Shown piece by piece: positions 462 through 54,744 of a stretch of 64,000 nt of DNA. The notes beneath the pieces were generated by a model. That model saw nothing but the letters and a program-made list of their open reading frames with translations. It was not told where the DNA came from and did not search any database. The first letter of the stretch is position 1, and the number at the start of each line of letters is the position of its first letter. The position numbers were made by a program, and so were the translations under genes. The stretch is from Eledone cirrhosa (taxonomy: Eukaryota), in NCBI GenBank assembly GCA_964016885.1, contig OZ024761.1, positions 6,324,001 to 6,388,000 on the forward strand, given 5' to 3'.

Positions 462-868
462 CGTTTCTGAATTTGTTTAACGTGTGTTGAAACCGATATT
501 GTTATACTTTGGGAGGGTCATGTTGCCAATAAGAAACACACGCACCAGTTGCTTTCACTTCAATTTATTATAAATTAAATTTATAAATTTAGGAATTTAT
601 AAATTTCCGGTTGGTTGGTTGGTTGGTTCCACAACCAGATGATTGTTCATATATTGTCAAAGTTCTTTCGTCACACATTCTGTGACCTCTTCAGTGACTT
701 GGGATTCTTTTCTTCGTTTTTGTGCCTCTCCTTTGTTCTGTCCTACGCCATCTTGTTTTTGTGTGTGTTGTGTGCTTAATTTGCGCATGTGTTACATCCG
801 GGTGCCTGTGTGTGTTTATATTTGTGTGTTTCTTATTGGCAACATGACCTTCCCAAAGTATAACAATA
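460..868 (-). mobile_element. Penelope-like pseudo-LTR fragment, family A, with inverted terminal segment
   Basis: Homologous to 5887-6165 and 42393-42750, and related to the 3' region of the PLE (15180-15720); about 825-868 is the reverse complement of about 498-541; flanked by (TA)n; contains HHR. Confidence 0.8.
656..698 (-). ncRNA. Minimal type I hammerhead ribozyme (family A)
   Basis: Minus strand: GTCA-CTGAAGA-G-GTCACA gaatg TGTGAC-GAAA-G aa C-TT-TGAC (stem I GTCA/TGAC, 6-bp stem II, minimal stem III). Confidence 0.8.
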
Positions 869-5886: not shown

Positions 5887-6157
5887 CACACACAGAAACA
5901 AAATGGCGTAGGATAGAAGAAAGGAAAGGCACAGAAACAAAGAAAGGAATCCCCAGTCACTGAAGAGGTCACAGAGTGTGTGACGAAAGGACTATGACTA
6001 TATATAAACAACTATCTGGTTGTGGAACCAACCAACCAACCAGAAATTTATAAGTTTGTAGATTTGTAAATTTATAAATTTATAAATATATAATAAATTG
6101 AAGTGAAAGCAACTGGTGCGTGTGTTTCTTATTGGCAACATGACCCTCCCAAAGTAT

Positions 6158-6198: not shown

Positions 6199-6203
<5 letters not shown>

Positions 6204-6364
6204 AAGGAATTGTGGTAAGGAACCAGATGGACCATAACGCACCGGAGTACTCAATACTTAGGGTAGTAGAGTGGGAAATAGGAAAAAGTATGACCCCGAC
6301 GTATGACTGTGTCCAGAAATAGCCGTCGAAACGGCTTGAGCTCTGCCGTCGGGTCATATTTTTT

Positions 6365-6370
<6 letters not shown>
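6199..6370. mobile_element. Family B fold-back pseudo-LTR fragment carrying the 3' half of an HHR
   Basis: ATAGGAAAAAGTATGACCCCGAC mirrors GTCGGGTCATATTTTTTCCTAT; contains GAAA-CGGC ttgagctct GCCG-TC; homologous to 41425-41615, 43121-43340 and 43644-43830. Confidence 0.8.
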
Positions 6371-6819: not shown

Positions 6820-6878
<59 letters not shown>

Positions 6879-7095
6879 GAATATACAAGAGAGTTCTAAC
6901 TCAATATATACTTTTCATATAGTCCGCTCCTTCAAACTTTGTTGAGCTAATTTAAATGTCGTGTAAACTTGGCTACTATTTTTAGCAGCGTATGTTTATG
7001 AGACACGCTATGGTTCTGATGCCATGTGCGTTATTTTATATTCGCACACTATTCAGTCTTCTGAGATACTTAGAAGTGATGGGTTTACTAATTTT

Positions 7096-7172
7096 ACACC
7101 CACTGATGAGCAAAGAATTGGTAATTTCCTTCGCTAAAAATTGCGAAACAGCCTCCAAAGCTGTCTGGGTGT
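7096..7172 (+). ncRNA. Canonical type I hammerhead ribozyme (family E)
   Basis: ACACCCA-CTGATGA-GCAA...TTGC-GAAA-CAGC ctccaaa GCTG-TC-TGGGTGT; 7-bp stem I, 4-bp stem II, full stem III, GUC site at 7163-7165. Confidence 0.92.
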
Positions 7173-7376
7173 CTGGCAGATGCCCCAGTATCGGTTTGTT
7201 TTTCTTTTTCTTGATTTATTGCTTTAAATTGAGTCTGGCAAACCATATTGTTCATAGTTAGTATTTTTGTCACCCTAGCGAATTAGGTCCCTTACGATTT
7301 GAACACATGGTTCTTATATCTGTCTTTATCTCTCTTTTATTTTCAATTATATATATATAATAATACGAATAATAAT

Positions 7377-7596: not shown

Positions 7597-7603
7597 TAAT
7601 AAT

Positions 7604-7711
7604 TGTTTCTACTTTAGGCACAAGGCCAGCAATTATCCAATGCATTACTGGTACTTTATTTTATCGACCCCGTAAGGGTGAAAGGCAAAGTTAACCTCGG
7701 CGGGATTTGAA
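7604..7711 (-). mobile_element. 5'-truncated copy of the same SINE
   Basis: Matches about 7377-7485. Confidence 0.9.
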
Positions 7712-7884
7712 TAATACAAGGACGATTTGTTAAGCCTTCATTACGTTTATTGGTTGGTGACACTCGTTTCGTTATTATAATATATATATAATATAATATA
7801 TATATTATATATATATACAGTATATATATATACAGTATATATATATACAATATATATATATATATTTATATATATATATATATA

Positions 7885-8721
7885 TAGTAGAATAATCGAG
7901 TATCGAAAAATCGGCGCACAAGTTCACGATAAACAAAATTCGAGATGAGCGGCAGAGGGCTCCATAATTCAAATAAATCAGAGCTATAACTATCGTTAAA
8001 ATACCGTCACACGTAGAATATGTCTACAATCAACCAAATAACCGAAAATTTTCGATATGGAAGATTCGGGACACTCAGATAAATTATCAATAAATCAATA
8101 AATGAAATGAATGTAAAAAGCATACCCGGACCCACTAGAGAGATGGTATATCTAGCTTCTTGGGTTTCTGTAACTCCTTAAACCGTGCTCTATCAGCTCA
8201 CACAAAAATATAAGACTTACAGACAACGGGGGACTGGAGCTACTTCTTCAACGAGCCTTAGTCCAAACGGATGAAAAGGCAAAACCCAGGTTGAAAATAC
8301 GCACATGGATTTCAGCAAGGGAGATAACCTTTATATCCGCAAAAAATATTCGTGAAAATGTGGAATAACACATATCGAATAAGAGTGCTCAATAGACATG
8401 TTAAAATAAACAGGAGCTATTCATCATTTAATAGAATCGACAAAAAATGAACAATAAAATTAACTGGTCAATAGCTAGGTCTAGAGCTAAATATAGTAGA
8501 ATAATCGAGTATCGAAAAATCGGCGCACGAGTTCACGATAAACAAAATTCGAGATGAGCGGCAGAGGGCTCCATAATTCAAATAAATCAGAGCTATAACT
8601 ATCGTTAAAATACCGTCACACGTAGAATATGTCTACAATCAACCAAATAACCGAAAATTTTCGATATGGAAGATTCGGGACACTCAGATAAATTATCAAT
8701 AAATCAATAAATGAAATGAAT
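7885..8721 (-). mobile_element. Non-coding 609-bp partial-tandem element (retrozyme-like)
   Basis: 228-bp direct repeat 7885-8112 = 8494-8721 (one mismatch seen), offset 609; no ORF; large HHR motif inside; (TA)n at the left end. Confidence 0.75.
8124..8256 (-). ncRNA. Type I hammerhead motif with extended stems II and III (family G), core slightly deviant
   Basis: GCTCG-TTGAAGA-a-GTAGCTCC...GGAGTTAC-a-GAAA-CCCA agaag CTAGA...TCTAG TGGG-TC-CGGGT; all three stems pair; C3U change and an A.A at the base of stem II. Confidence 0.65.
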
Positions 8722-8752
8722 TAACAAAGGTTTCACGAAGACGGGCGAGCAG

Positions 8753-8838
8753 AATAGAGACGTCAGAAATTGTGCATCAGAAAGGAAAATTTAAAATTTA
8801 AATTAAAATTTTCCTTTCTGATTTCAGACGTCTCTATT
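8753..8838. repeat. Imperfect hairpin adjacent to the 609-bp element
   Basis: AATAGAGACGTC/GACGTCTCTATT outer arms; ATCAGAAAGGAAAATTT/AAATTTTCCTTTCTGAT inner arms. Confidence 0.75.
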
Positions 8839-8960
8839 GAAATCACCTGTCTTCCTGAAACCTTTGGTAAATGGAATAATTGTATTGTGTTGTAATTAAA
8901 TAGCTCTGTACTATACACAGAGCACTCTCCCTTCCTTTACCTTTTCTACGGAAATACTTC

Positions 8961-9970
<1,010 letters not shown>

Positions 9971-40589: not shown

Positions 40590-40701
<112 letters not shown>

Positions 40702-40722
40702 GGAGGTGAGTTTATGTTACCT

Positions 40723-40781
40723 TATTTTATCTGATGAGAACGCAGGATGATATTTGTTTTTGAAATGCGCATAATAAAATA
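40723..40781 (+). ncRNA. Hammerhead ribozyme (family D, shortened stem II)
   Basis: TATTTTAT-CTGATGA-gaacgcaggatgatatttgttttt-GAAA-TGCGCA-TA-ATAAAATA. Confidence 0.7.
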
Positions 40782-40814
40782 TATGGAACTTTTTTAACCA
40801 TATTTTAATTTCTT

Positions 40815-40858
<44 letters not shown>

Positions 40859-41424: not shown

Positions 41425-41715
41425 TAACGAAGGAAGTGTGGTAAAGAACCAGATGGACCATAACGCACCAGAGTACTCAATACTTTGGGTAGTAGAGGTA
41501 ATAGGAAAATGTTCAAGACCCCGACGACAGAGCTCAAGCCGTTTTGACGGCTATTTCTGGACTAAATTAGATTTTTGCGTGGTAAATAAATAGCCGAACT
41601 TTTCAAGTGGTAATTCCATATATGGGCGTACGATAATCATGCATTTCAGAAGATTGTAGTTGTCAAAAGGATTGGTCAAAATTTCTTGTAAACACAATTA
41701 AATCTTTCAAATATA
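41425..41715 (-). mobile_element. Longest family B pseudo-LTR copy
   Basis: Homologous to 6199-6370, 43121-43340 and 43644-43830; extends through the full HHR. Confidence 0.75.
41518..41611 (-). ncRNA. Hammerhead motif (family B) with U3-A8 core and G12A
   Basis: ACCAC-TTGAAAA-gtt CGGCTATTT...AAATAGCCG tc-AAAA-CGGC ttgagctct GTCG-TC-GGGGT; sister fragments retain GAAA and GCCGTC. Confidence 0.65.
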
Positions 41716-41739
41716 TTAATGTATATATTTATATAAGTG

Positions 41740-42392: not shown

Positions 42393-42866
<474 letters not shown>

Positions 42867-43045
42867 AAACATAAATTATCGAGAATCGCATTTCGGCCCA
42901 CGAAATAACGAAAAGCAACCTCCGAAATGTGTGGCAAGTGCTCAATGATTCAGATGAACCAGAGCTACAACATACGTTAAAGGCCAAACACACTGAGACG
43001 ATGGTTAAACAATCATTCGCATAGCCAAAAAAAAAAACGATCAAG

Positions 43046-43120
<75 letters not shown>

Positions 43121-43123
<3 letters not shown>

Positions 43124-43336
43124 CGAAGGAAATGTGGTAAGGAACCTGGTGGACCATAATGCACCAAAGTACTCAATACTTAGGGTAGTAGAGTGGGTAA
43201 TAGGAACGAGTAGGACCCCCACGTCTGAGCTCAAGCCGTTTCGACGGCTAATTCTGGACTAGATGAACATTTTTATCTAGTCCAGAATTAGCCGTCGAAA
43301 CGGCTTGAGCTCAGCCGCCGGGGTCCTACTCGTTCC

Positions 43337-43643: not shown

Positions 43644-43648
<5 letters not shown>

Positions 43649-43825
43649 GGAACCAGTAAGACCCCGACAGCTGAGCTCAAGCCGTTTCGACGGCTAATTC
43701 TCCGTCGAAACGGCTTGAGCTCAGCTGTCGGGGTCTTACTGGTTCCTATTATCCACTCTACTACCTCAAGTATTGAGTACTTTGGTGCGTTATGGTCCAC
43801 CTGGTTCCTTACCACATTTCCTTCG

Positions 43826-43830
<5 letters not shown>
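43644..43830 (+). mobile_element. Family B fold-back fragment (opposite orientation to 43121-43340)
   Basis: Perfect arms about 43644-43693 and 43702-43752, 8-nt spacer CTAATTCT. Confidence 0.85.
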
Positions 43831-48475: not shown

Positions 48476-51400
48476 TTTAGACACAAGGCCCACAATTTTA
48501 GGAGGAGGCGGAAAGTCGATGAAAACGTTCCCAGTGTATTACTGGTACTACTAGTAACTCTAGTTTCTACTTTAGTCACAAGGCCACAAATAACACCAGT
48601 GTATTACTGGTACTACTAGTAACAATAGTTTCTACTTTAGTCACAAGGCCACCAATAACACCAGTGTATTACTGGTACTACTAGTAACAATAGTTTCTAC
48701 TATAGTCACAGGGCCACCAATAACACCAATGTATTACTGGTACTACTAGTAACAATAGTTTCTACTTTAATCACAAGGCCACCATTAACCCAGTGTATTA
48801 CTGGTACTACTAGTAACAATAGTTTCTACTTTAGTCACAAGGCCACCTATAACACCAGTGTATTACTGGTACTACTAGTAACAATAGTTTCTACTATAGT
48901 CACATGGCCACCAATAACACCAGTGTATTACTGGTACTACTAGTAACAATAGTTTCTACTATAGTCACAAAACCACCAATAACACCAGTGTATTACTGGT
49001 ACTACTAGTAACAATGGTTTCTACTTTAGTCACAAGGCCACCAATAACACCAGTGTATTACTGGTACTACTAGTAACAATAGTTTCTACTTTAGTCACAA
49101 GGCCACCAATAACTCCAGTGTATTACTGGTACTACTAGTAACAATAGTTTCTACTTTAGTCACAAGGCCACCAATAACACCAGTGTATTACTGGTACTAC
49201 TAGTAACAATAGTTTCTACTTTAGTCACAAGGCCACCAATAACACCAGTGTATTACTGGTACTACTAGTAACAATGGTTTCTACTTTAGTCACAAGGCCA
49301 CCAATAACACCAATGTATTACTGGTACTACTAGTAACAATGGTTTCTACTTTAGTCACAAGGCCACCAATAACACCAATGTATGACTGGTACTACTAGTA
49401 ACAATAGTTTCTACTATAGTCACAGGGCCACCAATAACACCAATGTATTACTGGTACTACTAGTAACAATAGTTTCTACTATAGTCACAAGGCCACCAAT
49501 AACACCAATGTATTACTGGTACTACTAGTAACACTAGTTTCTACTATAGTCACAAGCCCACCAATAACACCAATGTATGACTGGTACTAGTAGTAACAAT
49601 AGTTTCTACCTTAGACACAAGGCCACCAATAACTCCAGTGTATTACTGGTACTACTAGTAACAATAGTTTCTACTATAGTCACAAGCCCACCAATAACAC
49701 CAGTGTATTACTGGTACTACTAGTAACACTAGTTACTACTTTAGTCACAAGGCCACCAATAACACCAATGTATGACTGGTACTACTAGTAACAATAGTTT
49801 CTACTTTAGACACAAGGCCACCAATAACACCAGTGTATTACTGGTACTACTAGTAACAATGGTTTCTACTTTAGTCACAAGACCACCAATAACACCAGTG
49901 TATTACTGGTACTACTAGTGACAATACTTTCTACTTTAGTCACAAGGCCACCAATAACACCAATGTATGACTGGTACTACTAGTAACAATAGTTTCTACT
50001 TTAGTCACAAAACCACCAATAACACCAGTGTATTACTGGTACTACTAGTAACAATAGTTTCTACTTTAGTCACAAGGCCACCAATAACTCCAGTGTATTA
50101 CTGGTACTACTAGTAACAATAGTTTCTACTTTAGTCACAAAACCACCAATAACACCAGTGTATTACTGGTACTACTAGTAACAATAGTTTCTACTTTAGT
50201 CACAAGGCCACCAATAACACCAGTGTATTACTGGTACTACTAGTAACAATAGTTTCTACTTTAGACACAAGGCCACCAATAACACCAGTGTATTACTGGT
50301 ACTACTAGTAACAGTAGTTTCTACTTTAGTCACAAGGCCACCAATAACACCAGTGTATTACTGGTACTACTAGTAACAATAGTTTCTACATTAGTCACAA
50401 GGCCACCAATAACACCAGTGTATTACTGGTACTACTAGTAACAATAGTTTCTACTTTAGTCACAATATCACCAATAACACCAGTGTATTACTGGTACTAC
50501 TAGTAACAATAGTTTCTACTTTAGTCACAAGGCCACCAATAACACCAGTGTATTACTGGTACTACTAGTAACAATAGTTTCTACTTTAGTCACAAGGCCA
50601 CCAATAACCTCAGTCTATTACTGGTACTACTAGTAACAATAGTTTCTACTTTAGTCACATGGCCACCAATAACACCAGTGTATTACTGGTACTACTAGTA
50701 ACAATAGTTTCTACTTTAGTCACAAGGCCACCAATAACACCAGTGTATTACTGGTACTACTAGTAACAATAGTTTCTACTTTAGTCACAAGGCCACCAAT
50801 AAAACCAGTGTATTACTGGTACTACTAGTAACAATAGTTTCTACTTTAGTCACAAGGCCACCAATAACCTCAGTCTATTACTGGTACTACTAGTAACAAT
50901 AGTTTCTACTTTAGTCACAAGGCCACCAATAACCTCAGTGTATTACTGGTACCACTAGTAACAATAGTTTCTACTTTAGTCACAAGCCCACCAATAACAC
51001 CAGTGTATTACTGGTACTACTAGTAACAATAGTTTCTACTATAGTCACAAGACCACCAATAACACCAATGTATGACTGGTACTACTAGTAAAAATAGTTT
51101 CTACTTTAGTCACAAAACTACCAATAACACCAGTGTATTACTGGTACTACTAGTACCAATAGTTTCTACTTTAGTCACAGGGCCACCAATAACACCAGTG
51201 TATTACTGGTACTACTAGTAACAATAGTTTCTACTTTAGTCACAAGGCCACCAATAACACCAATGTATTATTGGTACTACTAGTAACACTAGTGTCTACT
51301 TTAGTCACAAGACCACCAATAACACCAATGTATTACTGGTACTACTAGTACCAATAGTTTCTACTTTAGTCACAAGACCACCAATAACACCAATGTATTA

Positions 51401-54400
51401 CTGGTACTACTAGTACCAATAGTTTCTACTTTAGTCACAAGGCCACCAATAAAACCAATGTATTACTGGTACTACTAGTAACAATAGTTTCTACTATAGT
51501 CACAAGGCCACCAATGACACCAATGTATTACTGGTACTACTAGTAACAATAGTTTCTACTTTAGTCACAAGATCACCAATAACACTAGTGTATTACTGGT
51601 ACTACTAGTAACAATATTTTCTACTTTAGTCACAAGGCCACCAATAACACCAATGTATTACTGGTACTACTAGTAACAATAGTTTCTACTTTAGTCACAA
51701 GGCCACCAATAACACCAGTGTATTACTGGTACTACTAGTAACAATAGTTTCTACTATAGTCACAAGGCCACCAATAACACTAATGTATTACTGGTACTAC
51801 TAGTAACAATAGTTTCTACTTTAGTCACAAGGCCACCAATAACACCAGTGTATTACTGGTACTACTAGTAACAATAGTTTCTACTATAGTCACAAGGCCA
51901 CCAATAACACTAATGTATTACTGGTACTACTAGTAACAATAGTTTCTACTTTAGTCACAAGACCACCAATAACACCAGTGTATTACTGGTACTACTAGTA
52001 ACAATATTTTCTTCTTTAGTCACAAGGCCACCAATAACCTCAGTGTATTACTGGTACTACTAGTAACAATAGTTTCTACTTTAGTCACAAGGCCACCAAT
52101 AACACCAATGTATGACTGGTACTACTAGTAACAATAGTTTCTACTTTAGACACAAGACCACCAATAACACCAGTGTATTACTGGTGCTACTAGTAACACT
52201 AGTTTCTACTTTAGTCACAAGACCACCAATAACACCAGTGTATTACTGGTACTACTAGTAACAATAGTTTCTACTTTAGTCACAAGGCCACCAATAACAC
52301 CAATGTATTACTGGTACTACTAGTAACACTAGTTTCTACTATAGTCACAAGCCCACCAATAACACCTGTGTATTACTGGTACTACTAGTAACACTAGTTA
52401 CTACTTTAGTCACAAGGCCACCAATAACACCAGTGTATTACTGGTACTACTAGTAACACTAGTTACTACTTTAGTCACAAGACCACCAATAACACCAATG
52501 TATGACTGGTACTAGTAGTAACAATAGTTTCTACCTTAGACACAAGGCCACCAATAACTCCAGTGTATTACTGGTACTACTAGTAACAATAGTTTCTACT
52601 ATAGTCACAAGCCCACCAATAACACCAGTGTATTAATGGTACTACTAGTAACACTAGTTACTACTTTAGTCACAAGGCCACCAATAACACCAATGTATGA
52701 CTGGTACTACTAGTAACAATAGTTTCTACTTTAGACACAAGGCCACCAATAACACCAGTGTATTACTGGTACTACTAGTAACAATGGTTTCTACTTTAGT
52801 CACAAGACCACCAATAACACCAGTGTATTACTGGTACTACTAGTGACAATACTTTCTACTTTAGTCACAAGGCCACCAATAACACCAATGTATGACTGGT
52901 ACTACGAGTAACAATAGTTTCTAATTTAGTCACAAAACCACCAATAACACCAGTGTATTACTGGTACTACTAGTAACAATAGTTTCTACTTTAGTCACAA
53001 GGCCACCAATAACTCCAGTGTATTACTGGTACTACTAGTAACAATAGTTTCTACTTTAGTCACAACACCACCAATAACACCAGTGTATTACTGGTACTAC
53101 TAGTAACAATAGTTTCTACTTTAGTCACAAGGCCACCAATAACACCAGTGTATTACTGGTACTACTAGTAACAGTAGTTTCTACTTTAGACACAAGGCCA
53201 CCAATAACACCAGTGTATTACTGGTACTACTAGTAACAGTAGTTTCTACTTTAGTCACAAGGCCACCAATAACACCAGTGTATTACTGGTACTACTAGTA
53301 ACAGTAGTTTCTACTTTAGTCACAAGGCCACCAATAACACCAGTGTATTACTGGTACTACTAGTAACAATAGTTTCTACATTAGTCACAAGGCCACCAAT
53401 AACACCAGTGTATTACTGGTACTACTAGTAACAGTAGTTTCTACTTTAGTCACAAGGCCACCAATAACACCAGTGTATTACTGGTACTACTAGTAACAAT
53501 AGTTTCTACTTTAGTCACAAGGCCACCAATAAGACCAGTGTATTACTGGTACTACTAGTAACAATAGTTTCTACTTTAGTCACAAGGCCACCAATAAAAC
53601 CAGTGTATTACTGGTACTACTAGTAACAATAGTTTCTACTTTAGTCACAAGGCCACCAATAACCTCAGTCTATTACTGGTACTACTAGTAACAATAGTTT
53701 CTACTTTAGTCACAAGGCCACCAATAACCTCAGTGTATTACTGGTACCACTAGTAACAATAGTTTCTACTTTAGTCACAAGCCCACCAATAACACCAGTG
53801 TATTACTGGTACTACTAGTAACAATAGTTTCTACTATAGTCACAAGACCACCAATAACACCAATGTATGACTGGTACTACTAGTAAAAATAGTTTCTACT
53901 TTAGTCACAAAACTACCAATAACACCAGTGTATTACTGGTACTACTAGTACCAATAGTTTCTACTTTAGTCACAGGGCCACCAATAACACCAGTGTATTA
54001 CTGGTACTACTAGTAACAATAGTTTCTACTTTAGTCACAAGGCCACCAATAACACCAGTGTATTACTGGTACTACTAGTACCAATAGTTTCTACTTTAGT
54101 CACAAGACCACCAATAACACCAGTGTATTACTGGTACTACTAGTAACCATAGTTTCTACTTTAGTCACAAAGCCACCAATAACACCAGTGTATTACTGGT
54201 ACTACTAGTAACAATAGTTTCTACTTTAGTCACAAGGCCACCAATAACACCAGTGTATTACTGGTACTACTAGTAACAATAGTTTCTACTTTAGTCACAA
54301 GGCCACCAATAACACCAGTGTATTACTGGTACTACTAGTAACAATATTTTCTTCTTTAGTCACAAGGCCACCAATAACACCAGTGTATTACTGGTACTAC

Positions 54401-54744
54401 TAGTAACAATAGTTTCTACTTTAGTCACAAGACCACAATAACCTCAGTGTATTACTGGTACTACTAGTAACAATAATTTCTACTTTAGTCGCAAGGCCAC
54501 CAATAACACCAGTGTATTACTGGTACTACTAGTAACAATAGTTTCTACTTTAGTCACAAGACCACCAATAACACCAGTGTATTACTGGTACTACTAGTAC
54601 CAATAGTACCCCATTGTATTACTGGTACTTTATTTTATCAGACCCTGTAAGGATTAAGGCAAATTTAACCTGTGTGGCATTTGAACTCAGAACGTAAAGA
54701 GCCATAACTCTATGCCACGAAGATTCTGCTACCAATCCACCGCC
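48476..54744 (-). mobile_element. tRNA-derived SINE split by an internal 65-bp satellite
   Basis: Long-type SINE tail at 48476-48548; body and head resume at about 54610-54744 (ACTGGTACTTTATTTTATC...TTTGAACTCAG...CCAATCCACCGCC). Confidence 0.82.
48530..54600. repeat. 65-bp satellite, about 93 copies, derived from the SINE 3' tail
   Basis: GTTTCTACTTTAGTCACAAGGCCACCAATAACACCAGTGTATTACTGGTACTACTAGTAACAATA versus SINE GTTTCTACTTTAGGCACAAGGCCAGCAATTATCCAGTGCATTACTGGTACT. Confidence 0.96.

Follow-up and report, generated by a model that had tools for sequence, protein, structure and literature searches.

We consider it probable that the insert at 7885-8721 of the window, the whole 64,000-nt stretch of Eledone cirrhosa DNA analysed here, is a 1.37-unit copy of a many-copy, non-coding family with a unit of 609 nt and a predicted hammerhead ribozyme. 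A Penelope-like RT/endonuclease, acting in trans, likely placed the insert within a TA microsatellite, and the family likely works like an animal non-LTR retrozyme, as a non-autonomous Penelope derivative. The initial annotation had seen a candidate retrozyme at this place; the TA target, the fixed internal 3' end and the join to a neighbouring family, here called family B, are features beyond its account.

Architecture of the 609-nt unit

A direct repeat of 228 bp at period 609, the lack of an ORF and an insert of about 1.4 monomers had been described before, and all three descriptions hold. At this period, 7885-8112 and 8494-8721 are identical at 227 of 228 positions; 7920 is the sole mismatch across 7882-8112, the identity extending 3 nt leftward of 7885 inside the TA tract. 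The insert of 837 nt makes 1.37 units of 609 nt, and the unit has 36% GC. On the minus strand, the 3', first-copied copy of the repeat R (7885-8112) ends in the TA tract at the fixed 3' end of the family. It is preceded by a single-copy part of 381 nt (8113-8493), consisting of a spacer (8257-8493), the hammerhead and 16 nt after the cut, and by the 5', last-copied copy of R (8494-8721), which stops 16 nt before the next predicted cut. RT would have started at 7885, about 242 nt past the predicted cut, and loose ends with TA repeats occur at the equivalent position 8491.

The sequence to the left is a TA-rich target tract (7773-7884). A TA-rich tract to the right (8961-9040) has the interrupted pattern of the left tract again, possibly as a long target duplication; this pattern, which was picked post hoc, flanks 7885-8960 at 7817 and 8975 and occurs nowhere else in the window. 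The optional 30-40-bp tail of Penelope elements is absent at 7885. Around the closed 609-nt unit the longest stop-free frame has 64 codons, or 41 when counted from Met. Eleven frames searched in the window for a coding origin of R and for a mobilising ORF gave no Pfam match, and frame scan and Pfam found no RT/GIY-YIG ORF in the unit; the window contains no tRNA. The insert holds one hammerhead, and two consecutive hammerhead-bearing units are not present at 7885-8721. As a circle, the minus strand of the unit is predicted to fold with a z of -4.3 (0 of 60 shuffles), and the plus strand lies at the shuffle mean. The spacer reaches a z of -3.7, with 0 of 200 shuffles as stable.

The predicted hammerhead

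The minus strand of 8124-8256 is predicted to form a type I hammerhead. Stem I pairs 8256-8252 with 8128-8124 in five pairs, two of which are G-U, and the core U3-U4-G5-A6-A7-G8-A9 occupies 8251-8245. A8244 faces A8169 at the base of stem II, with GAAA at 8168-8165. GUC stands at 8131-8129, and the type I descriptor places self-cleavage after it, between 8129 and 8128, 16 nt ahead of the repeat start at 8112. The stem II arm of 74 nt (8170-8243) has a z of -5.9 (0 of 200 shuffles), and the stem III arm of 36 nt (8130-8165) is not significant alone (z -1.0, 30 of 200 shuffles). The hammerhead is the minimum-energy fold of the minus strand (z -2.9; 3 of 200 shuffles reach its stability), and the plus strand gives no significant fold (z +0.5). 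A relaxed type I descriptor finds the hammerhead in the 609-mer and matches in none of 3000 dinucleotide shuffles. In five of six longer contexts stem I is not predicted, its pair probability being 0.00-0.01. Rfam returned no hammerhead in the window or in 7800-9000, which is uninformative because it also misses hammerheads with intact cores nearby at 5960 and 7103.

These results agree with the initial annotation on the minus-strand hammerhead with long stems II and III, on the predicted cut and its 16-nt spacing from the repeat, and on the U3-G8 and A-A features. Its remark that the copy may be weakened also fits, given those features and the two G-U pairs in stem I. Natural variants with U3 in the core exist and are said to be slower, according to the part of PMC7151607 that deals with them. 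Judged by its modelled structure, the copy at 7885-8721 is likely a weakened dead end; with a single, decayed hammerhead, release of a monomer by double cleavage is not expected.

The family in public sequencing runs

Of twelve public runs, none of them recorded as RNA, we compared four with 8113-8955 at 80% likeness: X1, X4 and X10 from organism A, possibly another species than that of the window, and X6 from organism C. The run tables gave 40 of 185 substitution rows, 21 of 325 loose ends and 19 of 1572 pieces. X1 has 1426 contigs on 8113-8955, of which 217, 265, 586 and 358 are at least 99%, 95-99%, 90-95% and less than 90% alike, respectively; X4 has 118 contigs and X10 has 6373 reads at the same likeness. 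X6 has only three contigs, one of them identical to 8378-8528 at a depth of 2.7, and was left out of the evidence. X4 differs from X1 and X10 in its one dominant variant, its near-flat depth (about 300) around the unit and its far larger share of family B.

A head-to-tail joint from 8721 to 8113, which equals the junction 8112|8113 of the window, occurs in three of the four runs (three contigs in X1, one in X4 and 137 reads with 10 starts in X10), and variant forms of it from 8712 and 8692 to 8113 are also present. The multi-copy, head-to-tail organisation expected in the initial annotation is borne out by the diverged copies and by this joint. The spacer runs on into R in X1 piece 6 and X4 pieces 9-11. 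The stretch of the hammerhead with little coverage is crossed by X4 pieces 9 and 11; in piece 9 the interval 8213-8298 is taken up by no more than about 89 other letters, too few to hold an ORF. Because of the joint, the continuity of spacer and R and the X4 bridge, the unit closes on itself at about 610 nt without an ORF. No dimer with two hammerheads appears among the 19 of 1572 pieces listed, in which the longest matched piece is about 210 nt.

TA repeats stand directly before 8491 in 321 X10 reads and three X1 contigs, so that many copies end at one common 3' place. The depth in X1 is 98,000-218,000 over R (8490-8634) versus 17,000-50,000 over the spacer (8316-8489), where summed contig depth is not copy number; a deeper R is expected if copying begins at a fixed start and is truncated toward the 5' end. 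The six pile-ups of read starts or ends listed for X10 all lie, as judged by eye, at AATT sites and were discarded as library artefacts; AATT is absent at the X10 joints used as evidence. Several states of both R copies are rare in X10, where 8572 differs in 373 of 401 reads, 8581 in 1584 of 1663, 8622 in 1427 of 1610 and 8693 in 406 of 413. Such rare states common to both copies point to one source lineage for both.

Because most copies differ by more than 20% across 8213-8298, the 5' half of the hammerhead with the core and the 5' strand of stem I, the family consensus of the core and the conservation of the stems appear unreadable from these runs. At 8229-8257, X4 has no coverage and X10 roughly 11% of that at 8113-8170. 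No high-frequency change at 8113-8173 stands among the 40 of 185 substitution rows listed. At 8203, 204 of 206 X10 reads carry the base that turns a G-U pair of stem II into A-U; at 8174, 224 of 229 reads differ, the pairing partner being unreadable. The predicted fold gains no overall support from family variants, as 4 of 24 sites keep a pair, 6 break one and 14 are unpaired or unsure. By part, three sites keep and one breaks a pair in the spacer, and none keep and five break one in R. A conserved fold of R is not supported, and R folded alone has a z of -1.9.

Between TA tracts at 42864-43051 (minus strand) lies a relative of R's 3' part, 73% identical to it, which has the state of most reads at several sites. 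It has open frames of 49 and 68 codons with no database match; a weak search with the 49-aa frame (42875-43021) found no homologue among longer proteins. A metagenome pattern scan was discarded, all seven loci being chance matches of 19-21 nt, and viral contigs gave 0 matches.

Family B and junctions at predicted cuts

The unit is joined at its right to an inverted arm of family B (8722-8795, minus strand) with a decayed core, whose end at 8722 corresponds to the predicted cut of family B. A plus-strand copy follows at 8796-8960, also with a decayed core, with GAAAC-stem III-GUA, a predicted cut at 8869|8870 and its 3' end in the right TA tract. The arms are 76% identical in the register 8722=8869 and 8721=8870, and the plus arm has a short stem III and a strand pairing with the sequence before the core. 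The depth of family B is very high in X1, X4 and X10, and its core is intact, as CTGATGA, at an X4 loose end. Rfam matches to miRNA families at 8722-8869 were set aside, being below threshold and reflecting the palindrome.

The join 8721|8722 lies 0-1 nt from the predicted cut of family B; it rests on this assembly and is spanned by no piece among the 19 of 1572 listed. Positions 8113-8120 and 8722-8729 are similar at 5 of 8 positions, which makes joining at the DNA level possible. In three X10 reads, R and the 15-16 nt after the cut are joined straight to 8496, in a register read by eye. This joint leads from a predicted cut end (0-1 nt) to an internal start, and the three reads may represent one locus. 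The two thin junction footprints suggest that cut RNA ends could act as stop and jump points for RT.

More speculatively, hammerhead cuts might be used in vivo in Penelope-type retrotransposition, RT stopping at cut 5' ends and jumping onto cut 3' ends, even between families. The whole of 7885-8960 might then have arisen as one chimeric insertion, with priming at both target ends, two different hammerhead RNAs as templates and a ribozyme cut as the point of stitching. The 609-nt family might be an invertebrate retrozyme with a large hammerhead, its own cleavage site being recorded in its genomic junctions. We regard this extended reading as tentative and, on the sequence as it stands, rather unlikely.

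Other inserts in the window

The window is low-complexity, animal-type DNA rich in (TA)n and minisatellites, and it contains further hammerhead-bearing or inverted inserts in (TA)n. The insert at about 6876-7350 lies between TA tracts, ends 182 nt past its predicted cut and has an 18-nt terminal inverted match. It includes a full type I hammerhead at 7096-7172 (plus strand) with an intact CUGAUGA core, a 7-pair stem I, a 5-pair stem III, a long stem II and a predicted cut at 7165|7166; the fold is 4 kcal/mol above the minimum. In its predicted structure it is the better candidate for cleavage than 8124-8256. Homology between the 609-nt unit and the hammerhead element at 7096-7350 was rejected as not significant, 34 of 300 shuffles having scored as well.

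Minimal hammerheads with a CUGAAGA core at 5952-6002 (plus), 42544-42594 (plus) and about 660-710 (minus) belong to a third repeat family. A fourth family, at 2510-2915 and 40699-40816, has a minimal hammerhead with a palindromic stem III; its inverted pair at 2606-2915 is extended on one side by about 95 nt, as is typical of a Penelope tail. One further family in (TA)n is found at 6199-6366, 41427-41721, 43123-43336, 43646-43826 and 1448-1663, often with inverted arms and with a conserved hairpin and no hammerhead by descriptor; it may represent the terminal part of Penelope-like elements from a clade that lacks hammerheads. A palindrome of 327 nt with arms 92% identical lies between TA tracts within 886-1381. 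A minisatellite array with a 65-nt unit occupies 48531-54607; the unit is similar to part of a dispersed SINE-like repeat found at 7597-7655, 15408, 34040 and 41881. The repeat at 7357-7484/7584-7711 is presumably an octopus SINE.

Discussion

The 609-nt family shares features with two groups of known elements. With the animal non-LTR retrozymes, as far as PMC7229834 and bioRxiv 10.64898/2026.07.22.740005 characterise them, it has in common its non-coding sequence, a GC content below 50%, the type I hammerhead, a head-to-tail unit in many copies and a self-paired predicted circle. The mismatch at the base of stem II resembles that of the axolotl HHR_Amex2. The unit of 609 nt is longer than the 150-450 bp given for animal retrozymes in PMC7229834 but falls within the 51-972 bp of the preprint, which argues that retrozymes are non-autonomous Penelope derivatives. 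With arms of 74 nt for stem II and 36 nt for stem III, the hammerhead exceeds the canonical 4-bp helix II and 1-2-bp helix III; a large helix III is rather a feature of hammerheads of fungal and protist PLEs, unlike the minimal metazoan form. In the preprint, an active retrozyme has at least two consecutive hammerhead units, and the copy at 7885-8721 is not an active retrozyme because it has one. We call the family retrozyme-like and claim no proven membership, cleavage and circle being predicted only.

The resemblance to EN+ Penelope-like elements, in the respects covered by PMC4209133, PMC11167929, PMC8557442 and PMC3846280, lies in the partial tandem (its direct repeat being 228 nt long here), a 3' end fixed at an internal site, insertion into AT-rich or (TA)n sequence, 5' truncation and an adjoining inverted arm with a central palindrome. 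Unlike these elements, the 609-nt unit has no RT/GIY-YIG ORF, its hammerhead lies 16 nt outside the direct repeat, and the adjoining inverted arm belongs to another family, family B. Non-autonomous Chlamys elements such as MRC1 are likewise derived from Penelope, have no ORF, form pLTRs and insert head to tail; they come from green algae, and the Naiad/Chlamys group is described as mostly without canonical hammerheads (PMC8557442, in the part concerned). The giant squid genome has a count of 235 hammerhead-1 motifs (from the relevant part of PMC6962438). A search of mostly open-access literature, exclusive of supplements, Repbase and Dfam, found no 609-nt family, cephalopod retrozyme or cut-site junctions.

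The insertion could have arisen as follows. The minus strand of the family would be transcribed, and a Penelope-like endonuclease acting in trans would nick (TA)n. RT would start at the fixed internal site 7885, those 242 nt or so past the cut site, and copy R; it would then cross an intact hammerhead junction, copy the hammerhead and spacer, and then R again. It would leave the template at 8721, 16 nt short of the next cut, and would then likely go on to the cut 3' end of a hammerhead-type RNA of family B. The Penelope partner we can only infer, because the window holds no mobilising ORF. Partial tandems, inverted 5' arms and a bias for (TA)n are among the features that PMC8557442 and PMC3846280 describe for Penelope-like elements, and PAc of Anolis starts RT internally at AT-rich nicks, on both strands, in the in vitro work of PMC11167929.

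The template carried a continuous cut junction, and we estimate that an uncut multimer is the foremost candidate for it, short of an even chance, a circle a strong second candidate and a cut monomer with an end-to-end jump a minor one. That the insert was copied by rolling RT from a true retrozyme circRNA, covalently closed at 609 nt, is a serious possibility that we do not favour. Rolling RT of a circle was already proposed as a source of tandems (in parts of PMC4209133 and PMC7229834), and the latter reports circles for coral, mussel and axolotl retrozymes; a self-closing unit, an internal start and a precise cut junction suit this origin, as does the stable minus-strand circle (z -4.3), and a circle requires that rare states be common to both R copies. 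However, an uncut multimeric transcript predicts the identical 1.37-mer insert, a young tandem source also gives such shared states, and the joint in the three X10 reads indicates that at least one event used a cut, linear template. The sections concerned of PMC11167929 and bioRxiv 10.64898/2026.07.22.740005 add that the main in vitro substrate of PAc was unprocessed RNA and that eight of nine Xenopus dimers remained uncleaved in vitro.

Three further explanations are less probable than the trans-mobilised, non-autonomous Penelope derivative that we prefer. The unit could be no more than the pLTR at the end of an autonomous Penelope-like element, whose ORF-less copies would be products of deletion or truncation. 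Its anatomy is that of Penelope partial tandems, and hammerheads mark pLTRs (PMC4209133, where it treats them), but the dominant X4 path closes from R through hammerhead and spacer to R in about 610 nt without an ORF, and none of the 21 of 325 loose ends listed, a small part of all, marks a common ORF branch; we hold this origin to be improbable. A satellite-like tandem amplified mainly at the DNA level after one old insertion, with the hammerhead as a relic, is slightly less probable still. Head-to-tail joints by themselves fit arrays, the 5' half of the hammerhead is highly variable, and bioRxiv 10.64898/2026.07.22.740005 proposes a DNA-level route in the part that bears on it; arrays, however, predict neither the over-representation of R nor a single fixed internal site at which many copies end in (TA)n. 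Single-copy sequence resembling a hammerhead by chance, duplicated locally or by an assembly stutter, could account for the 227 of 228 identities between the R copies, and no read or contig among those listed spans the flanks of the locus. The identical joint in raw reads and contigs of three runs, its diverged versions and the absence of the motif from all 3000 shuffles make this explanation highly improbable here, and at the level of the family the public reads and contigs rule it out. The single-copy, local-duplication and stutter possibilities, which the initial annotation had named as able to overturn its proposal, accordingly fail.

The role of the hammerhead in Penelope-like elements is stated to be unclear in the passages of PMC8557442 and PMC7761336 that address it, and PMC11167929 found no RNA-seq reads that end at the cut of the Anolis element. 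The points of interest of the locus are the long-armed hammerhead, the size of 609 nt and the two thin junction footprints at predicted cuts; apart from these, the 609-nt family adds a further repeat family to a kind already described. The fixed internal start together with the (TA)n target is a signature that ties a retrozyme-like unit to the Penelope machinery. Should the junctions of this genome prove to cluster at predicted cut sites, DNA alone would suffice to test cleavage in vivo.
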